Positions 1 through 7,046 are shown, numbered from the stretch's first letter. The stretch is DNA of 7,046 nucleotides from a virus (IMGVR_UViG_2609459803_000005); one strand, 5' to 3'. Made by a program: numbers and translations. The notes: generated from the letters alone by a model not told the origin.

Positions 1-537
1 ATGGAACCCCTTCGTGAAATAAGAAATCGGCTGCTTAACGGCTGGCAATTATCAAAAATGCATACTTTTGAAGTGGCTGCCAGGCATCAGTCCTTCGCCC
101 TGGCGGCAGAGGAATTGTCGCTGAGCCCCAGTGCGGTAAGTCACCGTATCAATCAGCTGGAAGAAGAATTGGGCATTCAGTTGTTTGTTCGTTCCCATCG
201 CAAAGTGGAATTAACGCACGAGGGGAAACGTGTTTATTGGGCGCTAAAATCGTCGCTGGATACCCTGAACCAGGAAATTCTTGATATCAAAAATCAGGAG
301 TTATCGGGAACGTTAACTCTGTATTCCCGGCCCTCTATCGCCCAATGCTGGTTGGTGCCCGCATTAGGTGACTTTACACGCCGGTATCTAACAGTAAAAG
401 CCGCCGGGGTATGGGCGGGGGGCATTGAAACACCTTCGGTGGAAACTCCATCGGAAGGCTCTAAATTTTTTGGTTTTGACATGGATAACGAATTCATCAG
501 TGGTTTTGATGTAGGGGCATGGGGAGTATTACTCTGA
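1..537 (+). pseudogene. dsdC: LysR-family transcriptional regulator, dsdC-like (D-serine deaminase activator), N-terminal HTH domain retained, 3' part replaced by unrelated sequence
   Basis: The first ~130 codons carry a classic LysR helix-turn-helix signature (FEVAARHQSFALAAEELSLSPSAVSHRINQLEEELGIQLFVRSHRKVELTHEGKRVY) and match my recollection of E. coli DsdC. After about nt 390-410 the translation (LTVKAAGVWAGGIETPSVETPSEGSKFF...) no longer looks like a LysR co-inducer domain, and the frame stops at 537, whereas LysR regulators are about 300 aa. Symbol assigned from memory. Confidence 0.7.
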
Positions 538-1340
538 TGGCGAAAAATGACTTTAAAGCGTTTGCAACTGATCGAAATGCCAATGTTATGTCGCAGGAGG
601 AATGGGAAGCGTTGCCTGCGCTTATATCCGGATTTACAGCAGGGAAAGCATCCAGTGCGCAAGTCAATAAGGTTATTCGGCAGGCCAGCTTTATTGCTGC
701 AGCTCTGGCCCAGTTTGTAAGTGATAAAACGCAACGGGATGTGCTTGATAATGGTGATCTGCCCGGTTTTGTTGAATTGCTGGGATCGGGGTTTGCTGTT
801 GAATACCTGAGCCGCAAGAATCCGTTTGGTGATATCAAATCGGATGGCACGGTGAAAACAGCTCTCGAAAACCTTGGTTTGGGAGAAGGCTCTGCATTAC
901 CGGTTGGTGTGCCTGTTCCGTGGCCTTCAGCTACACCACCGACAGGCTGGTTGAAATGCAATGGTGCAGCTTTTTCTGCTGAAGAATACCCGGAGCTGGC
1001 AAAGGCTTACCCGACAAATAAATTGCCTGATTTACGTGGTGAGTTTATTCGTGGCTGGGATGATGGGCGTGGAGTGGACAGTGGGCGAGCGTTATTGAGT
1101 GCTCAGAGCGATACGCTGCAAAATATTACAGGTAGCTTTTTGGATATGACCACGGGGCCAAATAATAATACTGTCGGCGCATTTACCTCTTCAACATTGA
1201 CACCAAATCTCGCATCAATTGCGACAGGTGGTACATATAAACAGGCGAATTATTATTTTGATGCATCACGTGTTGCCAGAACATCAACGGAAACACGTGC
1301 GCGAAATATTGCATTTAACTTTATCGTGAGGGCTGCATAA
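519..1340 (+). CDS. Phage tail-fibre protein, C-terminal portion only (5'-truncated remnant: short constant part to ~nt 873 plus variable receptor-binding segment)
   Basis: Tail-fibre C-terminal (collar-type) motif string [54 protein letters not shown]. The same frame has stops at 486-488 and 507-509, so the N-terminal bulk of a normal fibre gene is missing and the ATG at 519 may be fortuitous. The stop overlaps the next gene's start (TAATG at 1338-1342). Confidence 0.8.
862..887. repeat. Left crossover site of the invertible segment (gix/pix-like; internal dyad AAACC-TT-GGTTT)
   Basis: 15 bp TTGGTTTGGGAGAAG at 874-888 is repeated exactly in inverted orientation at 2739-2753. The flanks also partly match (TCGAAAACC versus TCATAAACG in the reverse complement). 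The AAACC-NN-GGTTT layout is as I recall for Gin-family crossover sites. It lies in the codons for LGLGE of the fibre gene. Confidence 0.6.
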
Positions 1341-1942
1341 TGGATAACGCTGTATTAAATAGCGAGCTTATTGCCACGAAGGCGGGGAATATTACCGTCT
1401 ATAGCTATGATGGTGAAACTCGGGAATATATTTCCACTTCAAATGAATATCTTGCCGTTGGTGTTGGTATCCCGGCATATTCCTGTCTGGATGAACCTGG
1501 TATACATAAGGCTGGTTATGCAATCTGCCGTTCGGCAGATTTAAACTCATGGGAATATGTGCCAGACCATCGCGGTGAAATCGTCTATAACACCGAAACG
1601 GGAGACGCCAAAGAAATCACAACTCCGGGTGATTACCCCGAAAATACAACCACTATCGCCCCGTTAACGCCATACGATAAATGGGATGGTGAGAAATGGG
1701 TGACAGACACTGAGGCACAACACAGTGCCGCAGTAGACGCGGCAGAAGCACAGCGCCAGTCACTGATTGATGCAGCAATGGCTTCCATTAGTCTGATTCA
1801 GCTGAAATTACAGGCCGGGCGGAAACTGACGCAGGCAGAAACAACCCGACTTAACGTCGTGCTGGATTACATTGACGCGGTGACGGCAACAGATACCAGC
1901 ACCGCGCCTGATGTCATCTGGCCTGAGCTGCCGGAGGCGTAG
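1340..1942 (+). CDS. Tail-fibre assembly protein (Tfa/U-like chaperone)
   Basis: 200-aa ORF whose start is translationally coupled to the fibre gene (TAATG), with a GTGAGGG Shine-Dalgarno 7 nt upstream. Size and position are typical of Tfa, and the C-terminus carries DTSTAPDVIWP, a motif shared with the convergent second assembly gene. Confidence 0.85.
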   Translation: MDNAVLNSELIATKAGNITVYSYDGETREYISTSNEYLAVGVGIPAYSCLDEPGIHKAGYAICRSADLNSWEYVPDHRGEIVYNTETGDAKEITTPGDYPENTTTIAPLTPYDKWDGEKWVTDTEAQHSAAVDAAEAQRQSLIDAAMASISLIQLKLQAGRKLTQAETTRLNVVLDYIDAVTATDTSTAPDVIWPELPEA

Positions 1943-2357
1943 GCCATTCAATATCGGGTGCTGTTGACGTATCAACACGCATCAGCAGCACACGGTATTT
2001 CTTCCATTGGGTGAGAGTTGAAGTTTCTTCATCAGTTGCGATACCAGCATCAACAGCATCCTGACGCCAGGATATTTCACTGTCAGCTTTTGCACGAAAT
2101 GTGGCTTTCATGTTTTCTGCATCTGATATTTTCTGTTCTGGTGAAAGCGGCGGCTCATCAACCCATGCAAGGGTCCCTGAAACCATTCCCAGCATTTTTC
2201 CTGTTGGCTTATTTCCCCCATTAAATCTGACAGCATCCTCATCGCTGATTTCAATACCATCCTGCGGCCATGTCCCCTCCTTGATATAACTTTCATATAG
2301 CGCTGCGTTGTAGATTGCATTTTCGGACGGGCTGTAAACACTTTTAACTTTATTCAT
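1914..2357 (-). CDS. Alternative tail-fibre assembly protein (U'-like), convergent with the first
   Basis: 147-aa ORF with a GGGAGA Shine-Dalgarno 7 nt before its ATG (2357..2355). It sits directly downstream of the minus-strand alternative fibre segment, whose stop TAA (2364..2362) lies between that Shine-Dalgarno and the ATG. C-terminal DTSTAPDIEWP motif. Its 3' end overlaps the plus-strand assembly gene by 29 bp. Confidence 0.8.
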   Translation of the reverse strand: MNKVKSVYSPSENAIYNAALYESYIKEGTWPQDGIEISDEDAVRFNGGNKPTGKMLGMVSGTLAWVDEPPLSPEQKISDAENMKATFRAKADSEISWRQDAVDAGIATDEETSTLTQWKKYRVLLMRVDTSTAPDIEWPTPPAAQAR

Positions 2358-2361
2358 TCTG

Positions 2362-2748
2362 TTATCTCCCTTTCGCTATATAGCAAAGATTAAACCCACC
2401 GGCGCCTGACATACGGGCTGTAAAACCCGTTCTTGAAGTACCAGTTGAGTTAACTCCATAAGCAGGCATGGTTGCTGGAGAAAGCAGAGACTCCTGGATA
2501 TCTGCCATTGTCAGTGTAATTGATTCGACCCGCGCGGGGAAAGGTAGCGGGAAAACAACATTCGTCCCTGTCTGTCCAACGGGGAAACCGAAAATACCCC
2601 ATTGTGTAATTACCCCATCCGGCCCCTTACTCCATCCAGATTTAGGAATCGGCCAGTCTGCTGCTCCAGAGTGCCCCGTTGTAAAACTACTCATATCTGG
2701 TACTTGCCCGGTATCCGTTCCGACGTTCCTCGTTGCCGCTTCTCCCAA
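2362..2748 (-). CDS. Alternative tail-fibre C-terminal variable segment (Sv'-like), silent in this orientation, expressed only after inversion
   Basis: Minus-strand ORF 2362..2793. Residues 15-18 (GLGE) are encoded by the inverted copy of the crossover repeat, so inversion would fuse the upstream fibre remnant (...ENLGLGE) in frame to this segment. The ORF's first ~14 codons lie outside the invertible segment and are probably not coding. Confidence 0.65.
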   Translation of the reverse strand: MGEAATRNVGTDTGQVPDMSSFTTGHSGAADWPIPKSGWSKGPDGVITQWGIFGFPVGQTGTNVVFPLPFPARVESITLTMADIQESLLSPATMPAYGVNSTGTSRTGFTARMSGAGGFNLCYIAKGR

Positions 2749-2765
2749 ACCAACGTTTATGAAAA
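2740..2765. repeat. Right crossover site of the invertible segment (inverted relative to the left site; internal dyad AAACC-AA-CGTTT)
   Basis: CTTCTCCCAAACCAA at 2739-2753 is the exact reverse complement of 874-888. It lies 55-80 bp upstream of the invertase start, the usual arrangement in Gin/Cin/Pin systems. Confidence 0.6.
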
Positions 2766-2819
2766 TGCAGAAATAACGATCAAATGGCATCATTCCTGCT
2801 TTTGTCAGGGAGATCTACC

Positions 2820-3374
2820 ATGCTTATTGGCTATGTACGTGTGTCAACAAATGACCAGAACACAGATCTACAACGTAATGCGCTGAACTGTGCAGGATGC
2901 GAGCTTATTTTTGAAGACAAGATAAGCGGTACAAAGTCCGAAAGGCCGGGACTGAAAAAACTGCTCAGGACATTATCGGCAGGTGACACTCTGGTCGTCT
3001 GGAAGCTGGATCGGCTGGGGCGTAGTATGCGGCATCTTGTCGTGCTGGTGGAGGAGTTGCGCGAACGAGGCATCAACTTTCGTAGTCTGACGGATTCAAT
3101 TGATACCAGCACACCAATGGGACGCTTTTTCTTTCATGTGATGGGTGCCCTGGCTGAAATGGAGCGTGAACTGATTGTTGAACGAACAAAAGTTGGACTG
3201 GAAGCTGCTCGCGCACAGGGACGAATTGGTGGACGTCGCCCCAAACTTACACCAGAACAATGGGAGCAGGCCGGACGATTAATTGCAGCAGGAATTCCTC
3301 GCCAGAAGGTAGCGATCATCTATGATATTGGTGTATCGACTTTGTATAAGAGGTTTCCAGCCAGGATTATATAA
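2820..3374 (+). CDS. Serine recombinase, DNA invertase of the Gin/Pin/Cin/Hin family
   Basis: N-terminus MLIGYVRVSTNDQNTDLQRNAL carries the catalytic-serine motif (YVRVST), followed by DRLGRS and a C-terminal HTH, in a protein of about 185 aa. GGGAGA Shine-Dalgarno 6 nt upstream of the ATG at 2820. The ORF-track start at 2784 is an in-frame upstream extension without a ribosome-binding site. Closely resembles e14 Pin as I remember it. Confidence 0.92.
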   Translation: MLIGYVRVSTNDQNTDLQRNALNCAGCELIFEDKISGTKSERPGLKKLLRTLSAGDTLVVWKLDRLGRSMRHLVVLVEELRERGINFRSLTDSIDTSTPMGRFFFHVMGALAEMERELIVERTKVGLEAARAQGRIGGRRPKLTPEQWEQAGRLIAAGIPRQKVAIIYDIGVSTLYKRFPARII

Positions 3375-3411
3375 AACCGCAGACACGCCGTATGCAAGAC
3401 GTGCTGCGGTT
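3375..3411 (+). terminator. Stem-loop immediately after the invertase stop codon (possible terminator or RNA-stability element; no U-tract)
   Basis: AACCGCAGACACG ... CGTG-CTGCGGTT forms a stem of about 12-13 bp with one bulge, starting 1 nt after the TAA. No T-run follows, so intrinsic termination is doubtful. Confidence 0.25.
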
Positions 3412-3570
3412 GGCTGATGCACTTTCGAGAGTGTATGTATTGAATTATTTCCAGCCGTTACTGATTTTACGTATTTTTTGTATGAGAGGAGTTGCACCAC
3501 CTCTTAAGCATAATTTGTTAGAATCATGGCAGCACAATAGCCATATATCCAATATAAAATACTTAACCTT

Positions 3571-4470
3571 CTAATCATTATGGAGTATTTGATCGCCGTA
3601 TGGCCAGCCATTTTCCCCAGGAAGGGTCATACCTAACATTGGCATAATACTAAGTTGTCCAATGGTAAATCCTAGAGCACTTGTATTACTGATTCCGGCA
3701 TAGGTCATATCAAGGGGGTTAGACTCTGAGCTGGACATAAAAAGATTTCTTGTGCCAATTCTATTCGCCATTGAGAACTGAATATGCCCACCAATTGTAT
3801 TTACGGTGTCCTGAGATATCCAGTTGTTTAACGCGATAAATGGCGCCCGCCACCAGTTAAGCGTGCCATTCTCAAAACGCCCCCTCGTCATCTCAATATC
3901 TTCCCGAAACTGCTGCTTTCTGTCTCCCAAGACTACCGGGGTACCTGTTGTCAGGTCAAGGCAGTCCTCAATTACAAGATTAGTGGGGTTTGATGGGGTG
4001 TTGTAGATCTTAATGATTTTATGTACCTGTGTTCTGAAACAGAATCCGTAAATAATCATCTCCGTTGCTACAGAACGGGGAAAAAACTGGCCAATATCCA
4101 GTATAAATTTTTCCGCGATTCCCTTTGTTAAAACTGCAATTTCATAAAGACTCGGGTAACTATCATAAGTCAACTCCGGCTGCTGAACATCATAATAATT
4201 AACTTCATGTAATGAAGATAATGATACGGCAAGTAACTCCTTCACATTTATACCGATCATTGTTCCTCCTGCAAAGCCGAAACCAAACTCCATAATTTTT
4301 TCCGGAGATAGACGGTATATGTCATTGGAGCGAATAACTGATACCGGAATCGAGAATAGTTTAGGACAGTGATTTGTCATTACACTTTCATGCTGGGTGA
4401 TTCTTGAGTCGCTTACGGCCCAGATACTTTCCCCTTCTTCCCTGTTTAGCCAGCAGGCTATTGCTGTCAT
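3571..4470 (-). CDS. Hypothetical protein, 299 aa, unknown function (possible Ntn-hydrolase/HslV-like N-terminal region, unverified)
   Basis: Long minus-strand ORF (track 3571..4608). I place the start at the ATG at 4470 because it has a strong AAGGGGG Shine-Dalgarno 6 nt upstream. This gives MTAIACWLNREEGESIWAVSDSRIT... I recognise no family with certainty. Confidence 0.7.
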   Translation of the reverse strand: MTAIACWLNREEGESIWAVSDSRITQHESVMTNHCPKLFSIPVSVIRSNDIYRLSPEKIMEFGFGFAGGTMIGINVKELLAVSLSSLHEVNYYDVQQPELTYDSYPSLYEIAVLTKGIAEKFILDIGQFFPRSVATEMIIYGFCFRTQVHKIIKIYNTPSNPTNLVIEDCLDLTTGTPVVLGDRKQQFREDIEMTRGRFENGTLNWWRAPFIALNNWISQDTVNTIGGHIQFSMANRIGTRNLFMSSSESNPLDMTYAGISNTSALGFTIGQLSIMPMLGMTLPGENGWPYGDQILHND

Positions 4471-4872
4471 TGAAAACCCCCTTTTAAGTAAAAAAATCAG
4501 ATTCAGATAGTGCATACATAATTTAGTCAAGTCATCTCTTTTAAGACGCATTGAGAAATGGTTGCTCAAGGTGCGCCAGTGAACGCGCACGAAAATAACT
4601 TCTTGCATTTCCCATTACACTCTGACTTTAGGGCCGCGTTAGATTTTAACATGGTGGCCGTGCATCCATTTAAATTGGTAATCTGGAGAATGAGTAACGC
4701 TGAATAGATTAACAATCTATGCGACTAACGGCCCTTAAAAGCGCAGCTCATAACATCGAATTTTACCAGTTTAGTCATTTTTAAAAAGTGCCCGAAAAAT
4801 GTTGTCCACGATTTGTGCTCTACGTCCCATCTTGACCTACTCCCTGATAATTCACTCAGAAGGCGGTTAGCA

Positions 4873-4900
4873 ATGTCCGTTAAGTGCTCACAACGGACAT
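4873..4900. promoter_or_regulatory. Perfect 9-bp inverted repeat (ATGTCCGTT-N10-AACGGACAT) inside the cargo-cassette spacer; candidate operator or RNA hairpin
   Basis: Directly visible dyad symmetry. It lies between the two cargo genes, inside the questionable 78-aa ORF. Confidence 0.3.
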
Positions 4901-4951
4901 TCAGCCCACTAAATCCGACCGTGTCGCTCAATATGCGGACAGGTTGTAGTG

Positions 4952-5554
4952 CTAACTGCATTGTAGCTGTGAGATTTCACCATCGATGGCTTCTATAACC
5001 TGTTTATAGCGGAGCATGACCTCATCATGAATCATCATTAATCCGCGGCCGTACTCTGTGGCTAGGATTGTGTATCTTTTCAGGTGTGCAAGATGTTCTT
5101 TGTTGCCAGTAATGTCACTTGCAACCTGCGTGGAGTCCAGCCGTTCGATAAGCGCATTATTGCCGCGATAGGAATCAATTAGGCTTCTTGCGCTTGTATA
5201 AAAAGCCACAATTTTTGAGAGTGTTTCTCTATGAACTTCAGGTAGGGATGCCGAGTTGGCTTCATAGAACGTGAAGTAGTTTTGAGTAATGGGGAAAATG
5301 TTATCGAACGGTGAGTTCCGGTCGTATTTTTCGATTTCTTCTGCCATTCTGGCCTGATACAGTTTAATCAGTGAGTCTATTTCCTCTCTGACACCCAATA
5401 GCGTTGTTATACGCTTCTCTCTGGCCGCTGTTGCCTGCTGTTTTGCCTGCTGTTTCACCTGAGTTGTCACTCCTATCATCGTGAAACAGCCACCTAAAAG
5501 AGCTGCTAAAAATGCGGAGATGAGATCTGAATATTCGTGCCAGAAGGTTAGCAT
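4952..5554 (-). CDS. Hypothetical membrane-anchored protein, 200 aa (one N-terminal hydrophobic helix, then a charged, probably helical domain)
   Basis: Minus-strand ORF whose N-terminus has a hydrophobic stretch (LISAFLAALLGGCFTMIGV), followed by a K/Q/E/R-rich segment. No convincing Shine-Dalgarno before the first ATG (5554). An alternative internal start at 5479 has an AGGTGG upstream but would remove part of the hydrophobic helix, so the start is uncertain. Confidence 0.65.
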   Translation of the reverse strand: MLTFWHEYSDLISAFLAALLGGCFTMIGVTTQVKQQAKQQATAAREKRITTLLGVREEIDSLIKLYQARMAEEIEKYDRNSPFDNIFPITQNYFTFYEANSASLPEVHRETLSKIVAFYTSARSLIDSYRGNNALIERLDSTQVASDITGNKEHLAHLKRYTILATEYGRGLMMIHDEVMLRYKQVIEAIDGEISQLQCS

Positions 5555-5565
5555 GGCGAAAATTC

Positions 5566-5588
5566 CATTGGGTTAAATTATGTCTATT
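5566..5588. promoter_or_regulatory. Perfect palindrome GGTTAAAT-N7-ATTTAACC 12 bp upstream of the first cargo gene; candidate operator overlapping a -10-like hexamer (CATAAT on the minus strand, 5572-5577)
   Basis: Exact 8-bp inverted repeat read from the sequence. AT-rich, so more likely a protein-binding site than a stable hairpin. Confidence 0.3.
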
Positions 5589-5888
5589 TAACCACATAAT
5601 GATACGAAGATACCTTCCAAAATGTTGCTATGACCCCATCTGTTGTTGCCTGGCTGGTGACGTGTCTGGGTATTAGCACCGTGCTCTCTCATTATCTAAG
5701 TCTGGGCCAATCCTCGTTCATAACAGGCATTCACTTCAGTCATGGCAGAAAGGTATGCATGCTGGAGAAGTCATGAAAGAAAAGAAGACTTCTGCCTCGT
5801 TTGTCATCACTGTTATCTTCTCATTGATTATGCAGGTCATAGTGGGGACACACAAAGCTTTGTACTATCCGATAGTGGTTAAGGTGGA

Positions 5889-7046
5889 TCACTCCACCTT
5901 TTCATCAAGCCAATCCGCCCACCACTGCATCATTTCTCTGCGCTTATCGAGATACTGAGCATGGTTGTAAATACCGCGCACAGATCCGCCGTTGGCATGT
6001 GCCAGTTGCACTTCAATAGCGTCAGCAGGCCATTCGTGCTCGTTCATAATCGTGCTGAATTCATGCCTGAATCCGTGACCGCTTTCCAGACCCTCATAGC
6101 CGATTTGTTTGATCACAAGTAGCACCGCGTTCTCGCAAATTGGCTTCTTCTTATCGTTGCGCCCGGAAAAAACAAACTCTGATACTGGTTTAGTGATTGA
6201 GCTTAGTGTAGTGAGAAGTTCAACCACCTGGTCTGACATCGGGACCACATGAATTTTGCGTCCCTTCATTACACTGGCGTCGATGGTGATAATCCTGTTT
6301 TCAAAATCGACGTTCTTCCATAGCATGGAGCGAAGCTCTTTCGTTCTTAGGGCTGTGTAGCGCAAAACTTTAGTCGCAATGAGCGATACGATACTTCCTG
6401 AAAATGTTGCCAGTGCTTTATTGAATGCCGGGATCTGGTCTGCAGGAAGAAACGGGAAGTTTTTCTTGCGGTATCCCTTCATGGCGTCAGCAAGGTCAGG
6501 TGCCGGGTTATATTTAGCCCTACCAGTGACAATAGCGTAACGGAAAACCTCGCCGCATCTTCTGCGGGCTTTATTTGCTCGCTCCATTGCACCGCGATCT
6601 TCAAATCTGCGGATTACTTCCAGCAGTTGCATCGGCTCAATCTCCTGAATTTCAAGGCCGCCGATGATAGGTAAAATGTCGTCATCAAACATTTTTGCAA
6701 GTTCAGTCGCATACCCTACTGACCATACTTGCTTCTTGTGCTCGTACCATTCCTTGTAAATCGCACTAAATGAATTGTTGTTAGACGAAGCCTTTTTCGC
6801 CTTTACCGGATCGATGCCAACCGAGATGTCTTTCCTCGCAGTCCATGCCTTATCCCTTGCTTCCTGCAAAGTCATAAGCGGATATTTTCCGACGGTCAGG
6901 ATTTTCTCCTTACCGTCAATCTTGTAGCGAAGCTGCCATACCTTTTTCCCGGATACAGGAACATAAAGGTACAGGCCATTACCATCGAGAAGGCGGTATG
7001 GTTTTTCTTTCGGCTTTGCTGCTTCAATCTGCTTAACGGTGAGCAT
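5889..7046 (-). CDS. intS: Tyrosine recombinase, P4-type prophage integrase (IntS-like, CPS-53/KpLE1 family)
   Basis: Complete 385-aa ORF. Tyrosine-recombinase catalytic residues are visible near the C-terminus (HGFRHEFST with H-x-x-R, and VRGIYNHAQY with the catalytic Tyr). The start codon is the last triplet of the window, so the expected tRNA attachment site lies outside it. Symbol inferred from the dsdC-proximal context and my memory of K-12 IntS. Confidence 0.88.
   Translation of the reverse strand: MLTVKQIEAAKPKEKPYRLLDGNGLYLYVPVSGKKVWQLRYKIDGKEKILTVGKYPLMTLQEARDKAWTARKDISVGIDPVKAKKASSNNNSFSAIYKEWYEHKKQVWSVGYATELAKMFDDDILPIIGGLEIQEIEPMQLLEVIRRFEDRGAMERANKARRRCGEVFRYAIVTGRAKYNPAPDLADAMKGYRKKNFPFLPADQIPAFNKALATFSGSIVSLIATKVLRYTALRTKELRSMLWKNVDFENRIITIDASVMKGRKIHVVPMSDQVVELLTTLSSITKPVSEFVFSGRNDKKKPICENAVLLVIKQIGYEGLESGHGFRHEFSTIMNEHEWPADAIEVQLAHANGGSVRGIYNHAQYLDKRREMMQWWADWLDEKVE

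Follow-up and report, generated by a model that had tools for sequence, protein, structure and literature searches.

A 6-bp microhomology deletion very probably removed most of an argW prophage together with the 3' part of dsdC in a rare Escherichia coli lineage

The stretch of DNA analysed here (the window, 7,046 nucleotides) runs from the start codon of dsdC (position 1, + strand) to the start codon of intS (position 7046, - strand), and near its left end a truncated dsdC is joined directly to a phage structural gene. The arrangement is very probably best explained by one microhomology deletion that took most of a prophage and the 3' part of dsdC, with truncation of the host gene as collateral. 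About 6.8 kb of phage DNA is kept, comprising a fibre gene, a Pin-invertible segment, pin, two unknown cargo genes and intS. This is prophage decay of an ordinary, recurrent kind in a rare E. coli lineage, and the allele, new and rare in itself, belongs to a class of event that recurs and is well understood. Its significance beyond annotation of the strain is little. It does offer a base-resolved example of argW prophage decay, in which one deletion would have taken attR, the excisionase gene and all lethal/virion genes and left behind a remnant locked in place, with its cargo genes and a Pin switch that is still active, damaging the neighbouring host gene on the way.

Alignment of the window with K-12 dsdC showed 100% identity over positions 1-388, which correspond to nt 1-388 of the gene, and the match ends there, with phage homology beginning at position 383 (97.7% identity to S51 and 98.0% to GPT24-02, in stretches that start at 383). 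In the three-way alignment with its printed flanks, the window tracks K-12 until ...CACGCCGGTATC and the phage gene from GGTATCTAACAG..., and the two parents overlap by 6 bp, GGTATC (383-388), with zero filler bases and each base assignable to one parent. The hexamer sits at nt 383-388 of the dsdC coding sequence and at nt 527-532 of the phage coding sequence, and an overlap of at least 6 bp at a random join has a probability of about 0.0013. A first-pass annotation of this DNA had placed a deletion junction near nt 390-410 and had suggested an alignment with K-12 and a search for microhomology as the check; the alignment located the breakpoint at that place and found the microhomology.

The identity of the phage partner departs from what had been proposed at first. 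In S51 and GPT24-02 the match falls at the 3' end of a gene for a DUF2612-domain protein, which carries the name "baseplate wedge 1 family protein" in some other matched E. coli genomes, and the tail-fibre gene follows directly after it. Window position 383 equals S51 locus position 3001 and the alignment is gap-free from there to the DUF2612 stop codon, so the dsdC frame runs on in the phage gene's own frame. The outcome is a chimeric ORF of 178 aa (1-537, + strand) that joins DsdC residues 1-129, encoded by the dsdC 5' fragment at 1-388, to the last 49 aa of the DUF2612 protein, encoded in their native frame by the last 149 nt of its gene (49 codons plus the stop, 389-537). The stop codon of the chimera (535-537) is the native DUF2612 stop and overlaps the ATG of the tail-fibre gene (537-539). 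The first-pass annotation had named tail-fibre DNA as the junction partner and had let the ORF terminate inside the fibre region; the partner is instead the baseplate-wedge gene directly upstream of the fibre, and the ORF ends at the stop of that remnant. A minus-strand terminator-like hairpin beside the junction (418-401) lies within conserved phage coding sequence and was judged to be chance, since five terminator-like sites were found in total against 3.3 +/- 2.1 in shuffled sequences.

The DsdC part of the chimera holds the winged HTH, the linker helix and the first strand and helix of the effector domain. The LysR winged HTH is retained (PF00126 HTH_1 at residues 18-76, E = 2e-22). The LysR substrate domain PF03466 is matched at no more than profile positions 2-35 of 209, with a score of 18 bits, below the cut-off of 28. 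The DsdC equivalogs NF007491 and TIGR02036 scored below their cut-offs (250.5 bits vs 316 and 247.6 vs 352.4), with the match confined to profile positions 3-134 of 313, and all alignments of LysR chains from the PDB to the chimera end by about residue 140. Its last 49 aa are identical to the GPT24-02 DUF2612 protein and differ by one residue from that of S51. The earlier description of a dsdC-like frame that keeps its HTH and then continues into sequence unlike LysR therefore holds, residues 130-178 being phage DUF2612. The opposite case that it had considered, a full-length dsdC with a divergent C-terminus, does not apply: K-12 DsdC has 311 aa compared with the 178 aa of the chimera, and neither the window nor the carrier loci (up to 20.5 kb) contain dsdC nt 389-936. 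GenBank entries for the chimera (KDT73428.1 and KDU09644.1) are annotated as 'lysR family protein'.

An exact-protein look-up placed the 178-aa protein on 13 draft or Logan contigs. Four of these 13 places are listed, from four samples: the NCBI draft GCA_000700245.1 and the Logan sets ERR3328832, SRR1186469 and SRR1186636. An identical junction on 13 contigs, with the listed places coming from four samples, rules out an assembly artefact. None of 5,426 complete E. coli genomes gave a junction-spanning match, and a 34-nt junction probe had no match in GTDB species representatives or JGI metagenome contigs. In the listed carrier loci the order is evgS-evgA-emrK-emrY-dsdA-dsdX-chimera-fibre...pin-two genes-intS-yfdC-mlaA, from which the locus can be identified as the argW/dsdC island; the first-pass assignment to the argW/dsdC region is thus supported by the neighbourhood, evgSA-emrKY-dsdA-dsdX on one side of the truncated dsdC and intS-yfdC-mlaA at the other end. 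The carriers have uninterrupted DsdX (445 aa) and DsdA (442 aa), the 217-nt dsdX-dsdC intergenic control region of the carrier is identical to that of K-12, and the 1,500 nt upstream of dsdC contain one difference from K-12. With dsdXA undamaged and the dsdC fragment free of substitutions when compared with K-12, the event looks recent.

What was lost can be read from the attachment sites and from related prophages. K-12 has two copies of the 16-nt att core ATGGTGTCCCCTGCAG: one lies 95 nt downstream of the dsdC stop and shortly before torI, the other in argW, and they represent attR and attL, respectively, of its argW prophage. In the 20.5-kb locus of carrier L005 the argW copy is the only one, 161 nt past the start of intS, and the window does not contain the core; lying beyond intS and upstream of yfdC and mlaA, the core of the carrier fits the K-12 argW position. 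The torI gene was not found between the truncated dsdC and intS, either in the ORF list of the window or in the carriers. Of the IntS/TorI-type (KplE1) module, intS adjoining argW with the attL core is therefore present, and the attR core and torI are absent, which would make the remnant non-excisable; it should be locked in place and unable to form particles.

An intact prophage that ends in this way, with DUF2612-fibre-invertible segment-pin-cargo-intS, is present in GPT24-02. Its att cores are 44.1 kb apart, and the part that lies towards torI from the position corresponding to the breakpoint amounts to 37.2 kb, of which an IS421 makes up 1.3 kb. The induced phages vB_EcoM-606R2 and vB_EcoM-611R5 (42.7 kb) are 96% identical in the junction-proximal DNA. 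These comparisons suggest that the parent was of the type of a 43-44 kb temperate myovirus at argW, like the GPT24-02 prophage and vB_EcoM-606R2. The host DNA between dsdC nt 389 and attR is 642 bp long, and, presuming a parent like the GPT24-02/606R2-type relatives, the deletion would amount to about 37 kb in total. The first-pass annotation was right in that a deletion fused dsdC to the tail end of the argW prophage, but the loss goes well beyond a distal end of the prophage, about 85% of which is gone, attR and torI included.

The search for relatives returned GPT24-02, S51 and NADC1036 and no isogenic undeleted strain. NADC1036 carries a full argW prophage that matches window positions 869-2758 at 99.7% (inverted), 2739-7046 at 99.98% and 810-888 at 98.7%. 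It was rejected as the parent of the junction-proximal part: its homology starts only at 810, it has a different fibre N-terminus and another baseplate module (YmfQ and gp53-like instead of DUF2612), and csc replaces dsdC-dsdX in this strain. Window positions 810-888 (L001 6001-6079) thus mark a mosaic boundary, which indicates that modules are exchanged just upstream of the pix-like crossover site. With 383-888 resembling S51/GPT24-02 and 869-7046 nearly that of NADC1036, the parent appears to be a mosaic of modules that are now found in separate complete genomes; because the closest matches are mosaic in this way, the size of the deletion and its single step are what we infer from them. The K-12 prophage CPS-53 was rejected as a parent as well. 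Beyond dsdC, the window shares with it only intS (95.8%), 79 bp at the fibre crossover site and a tfa fragment, and the remnant is not the K-12 CPS-53/KplE1 element with which it had first been compared.

Joins of this kind, with 6 bp of microhomology and no filler, are the hallmark of RecA-independent illegitimate recombination; whether the route was replication slippage, break-joining or aberrant excision of the lambda-gal/bio type, the scar would be identical. In the sequence of events that we propose, the ancestor would have combined an intact, K-12-like dsdCXA with a temperate myovirus of 43-44 kb that occupied the argW site, the order being dsdC-attR-torI-early, lysis, head, tail and baseplate genes-DUF2612-fibre/invertible segment-pin-two cargo genes-intS-attL/argW. 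One RecA-independent illegitimate recombination, presumably in a single step, would then have joined the GGTATC in dsdC to the GGTATC in the DUF2612 gene. On the host side this would have cost about 0.64 kb, made up of dsdC nt 389-936 and the spacer that precedes attR, and on the prophage side about 36-37 kb. The truncation of dsdC would be collateral damage of a deletion that inactivated the prophage, and not its target. The junction records the last event only, and earlier internal deletions may have preceded it.

Other origins of the junction have to be weighed against such a deletion. The remnant encodes two recombinases, IntS and Pin, and IS-bounded truncations of dsdC are found at this locus in other strains, so a deletion adjacent to an IS element, IntS action at a secondary att site or Pin action at a pseudo-site may be considered. 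The junction, on the other hand, shows no IS end, att core or pix-like site, and all of its bases are assigned to dsdC or to the phage gene; an IS sequence or even one extra base has no room there, since the dsdC and phage homologies overlap by 6 bp. The att core is absent from the window, the only pix-like sites lie at 869-888 and 2739-2758, and GGTATC resembles neither. A mobile-element or recombinase origin of the junction is largely refuted by these observations and we regard it as very improbable. That there was no rearrangement at all, the ORF being a naturally short or divergent DsdC paralogue or an assembly chimera, is scarcely credible: the GenBank product name is indeed simply that of a LysR family protein, but the C-terminal 49 aa are the phage DUF2612 C-terminus in its own frame and with its own stop, K-12 DsdC is far longer, and the junction recurs unchanged across contigs whose listed places represent four samples.

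A different question is whether loss of DsdC itself was selected, as a pathoadaptive or niche-adaptive step that inactivated D-serine catabolism, similar to the replacement of dsdCX in EHEC/EPEC, with loss of the prophage as a by-product. Certain lifestyles show a strong association with dsdCX loss (PMC4366372), and dsdC has been inactivated repeatedly and independently, by IS1 in NCTC9008, EC-07 and L9, by IS3 truncation in IH5 and by IS1 truncation in fS25a. This allele is nevertheless rare, being absent from the complete genomes, GTDB species representatives and JGI metagenomes searched, and it looks young, with no substitutions in the dsdC fragment relative to K-12 and with dsdX and dsdA intact. 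There is no link between the carriers and any pathotype, and a deletion that rids an inducible prophage of its genes for lysis, replication and excision would be beneficial in itself. Selected loss of DsdC is for these reasons unlikely, and the microhomology deletion with collateral truncation of dsdC is the reading that we retain.

The argW-dsdCXA locus is described as a hypervariable island in two papers that attribute its variability to phage integration (PMC13054288, PMC4366372, citing Moritz & Welch 2006 and Jahreis et al. 2002), and it has already been noted that argW prophages decay and that cargo genes thereby come to lie nearer to dsdC (PMC9659370). The K-12 prophage CPS-53/KplE1 uses the same argW site, the same type of integrase (IntS) and the same 16-nt att core as the remnant, and it is also decayed, with tail-fibre and tfa fragments and cargo next to intS. 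Unlike the window remnant, it keeps attR, torI and an intact dsdC, and its internal genes differ (gtr-type yfdGHI cargo and yfdK-T); the remnant belongs to another phage type, has retained an intact pin and invertible segment, and was produced by a deletion that crossed attR into dsdC. In other rearrangements of the island, including those in which csc stands in for dsdCX in EHEC and others, D-serine regulation or catabolism is likewise abolished at the same hotspot, beside argW prophages (PMC13054288, PMC4366372, PMC9659370). The csc form occurs in NADC1036, which has the right arm of the window, whereas the window allele has no csc insertion and keeps dsdX and dsdA. In comparison with the csc replacement, only the 3' 60% of dsdC is gone here, and the deletion came from the prophage side.

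Damage to dsdC is not restricted to this allele. Among the complete genomes, dsdC was found in 2,734, its 5' 388 nt in 2,733 and its 3' 548 nt in 2,712, and roughly 21 have the 5' part without the 3' part, two of which (fS25a and IH5) were inspected. The fS25a locus (NZ_CM176579.1, L014 8613-14549) has nearly the same architecture, dsdA-dsdX-dsdC 5' fragment-tail-end phage gene-cargo gene-intS-argW, with dsdX and dsdA intact. It represents an independent event, in which dsdC was cut at nt 429 by IS1, compared with the microhomology join at nt 388 here, and its remnant is of another phage type, P22-like, with a tailspike and an acyltransferase. In IH5 (NZ_CP168949.1, L013 5001-6272), dsdC breaks off after nt 79 at an IS3-family element. 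Many gene fragments (gsp, flagellar and portal pseudogenes) are annotated in the surrounding region, and the locus may be heavily rearranged or poorly assembled. As independent analogues, fS25a and IH5 illustrate that dsdC has been hit repeatedly from the prophage side. The dsdC match is also split into two pieces around IS1 in NCTC9008 (NZ_LR134236.1), EC-07 (NZ_CM192846.1) and L9 (NZ_CP142044.1), which we take as further independent inactivations of the gene.

The main functional consequence concerns D-serine. Some E. coli strains have two dsdCXA copies (PMC9659370), and a strain without both of its dsdC copies does not grow on D-serine (PMC9659370; PMC4366372). Judging from its domain content, the 178-aa product would be unable to activate dsdXA in response to D-serine because it has no LysR effector-binding and oligomerisation domain, and it is from the literature (PMC9659370) that we infer, on sound grounds, a loss of DsdC-dependent dsdXA activation in this lineage. 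Unless a second dsdC exists, the carriers would be D-serine non-utilisers despite their intact dsdX and dsdA, and they would probably be sensitive to D-serine on minimal medium. The lineage should accordingly be scored as dsdC-negative, and as probably D-serine-negative, though it has both dsdX and dsdA. Screens for these two genes, such as the triplex PCR of PMC13054288, would miss the truncation of dsdC.

The chimera might not be a null protein in every respect. The PDB lists BenM entries for a fragment consisting of the DNA-binding domain plus linker (3m1e, 4ihs and 4iht), and since such isolated LysR fragments can fold, the chimera might keep some DNA binding. With the dsdC promoter untouched and the winged HTH and linker helix kept, it could be a dimeric, D-serine-blind binder of DsdC operators that does not activate and that acts as a constitutive repressor or in a dominant-negative manner, but this seems improbable. 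DsdC is reported to have many chromosomal sites in NMEC, and these would then be among the possible targets of the chimera. The join could also have an effect downstream, on the phage genes. The + strand has no predicted terminator-like site from the start of dsdC to position 2189, and the stop of the chimera overlaps the fibre ATG, so the dsdC promoter may drive the switchable fibre and tfa genes.

The tail-fibre gene itself (537-1340, + strand) encodes 267 aa, with matches to PF07484 (Collar) and to the tail-fibre families phrog_3100, phrog_523 and phrog_11303, and it is predicted with the same length in carriers. It consists of a constant N-terminal part, up to the left crossover site of a Pin-type invertible segment (869-888, + strand, AAACCTTGGTTTGGGAGAAG), and of a variable C-terminus with the collar domain that lies within the invertible segment. 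Only two matches to crossover-type sites were found in the window, against 0.01 expected, and these are 20-bp inverted repeats at 869-888 and 2739-2758. Between them lie a tail-fibre assembly gene of 200 aa (1340-1942, + strand; PF02413 Caudo_TAP, E = 7e-32), paired with the expressed fibre C-terminus, and, on the opposite strand, an alternative assembly gene of 147 aa (1914-2357, - strand; PF02413, E = 1e-32), which would be silent in the orientation of the window. Beside the latter lies an alternative fibre C-terminus (Gp53-like_C, PF21882; 2362-2758, - strand, in an ORF at 2362-2793) that contains the right crossover site. The pin-type serine DNA invertase (184 aa, 2820-3374, + strand) matches PF00239 (7e-51) and PF02796 and has the catalytic-serine motif YVRVSTNDQ; its 100%-identical copy in NADC1036 is named pinE in RefSeq.

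The segment is not only complete but has been inverted among the carriers. The stretch 869-2758 is flipped in L005 and L007 relative to the window, L006 and L008, all of which share the identical junction, and the endpoints of the inversion fall within the 20-bp inverted repeats. In L005 and L007 the alternative C-terminus is joined to the constant part, giving a fibre of 242 aa. Both orientations among carriers of one identical junction indicate that the Pin invertase has been active since the deletion. Of the features of a Din-family switch (Pin/Gin/Cin/Hin), the remnant shows a serine invertase, inverted sites, two fibre C-termini with their tfa genes and an observed inversion. The cassettes of e14 (Pin), Mu (Gin), P1 (Cin) and P2-like phages likewise have a serine invertase beside two fibre C-termini with tfa genes, and short inverted crossover sites that flank the segment. 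What differs here is that the cassette persists in a 6.8-kb remnant without other virion genes.

The right end of the window is formed by intS (5889-7046, - strand), which encodes an argW-site (P4-type) tyrosine integrase of 385 aa with arm-binding, central and catalytic domains. An Rfam search of the window gave no matches. Between pin and intS lie the two cargo genes, both on the - strand: cargo gene 1 at 3571-4608, a 345-aa ORF that RefSeq gives as 299 aa, and cargo gene 2 at 4952-5554, with 200 aa. Neither protein had a match in Pfam, PHROGs, PADLOC or NCBIfam, and the product of cargo gene 1 had none in the PDB either. A weak ZorB/MotB-like match in cargo gene 2 (residues 4-54, E = 0.002) was dismissed as non-specific. 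The G+C content of the cargo cassette (3377-5866) is lower, at 41.7% for cargo gene 1 and 44.4% for cargo gene 2. The cassette is found at 99% identity in other chromosomes and on the plasmid pSM107_MCR (NZ_CP130669.1), where it follows the tail-fibre genes of a lambdoid region.
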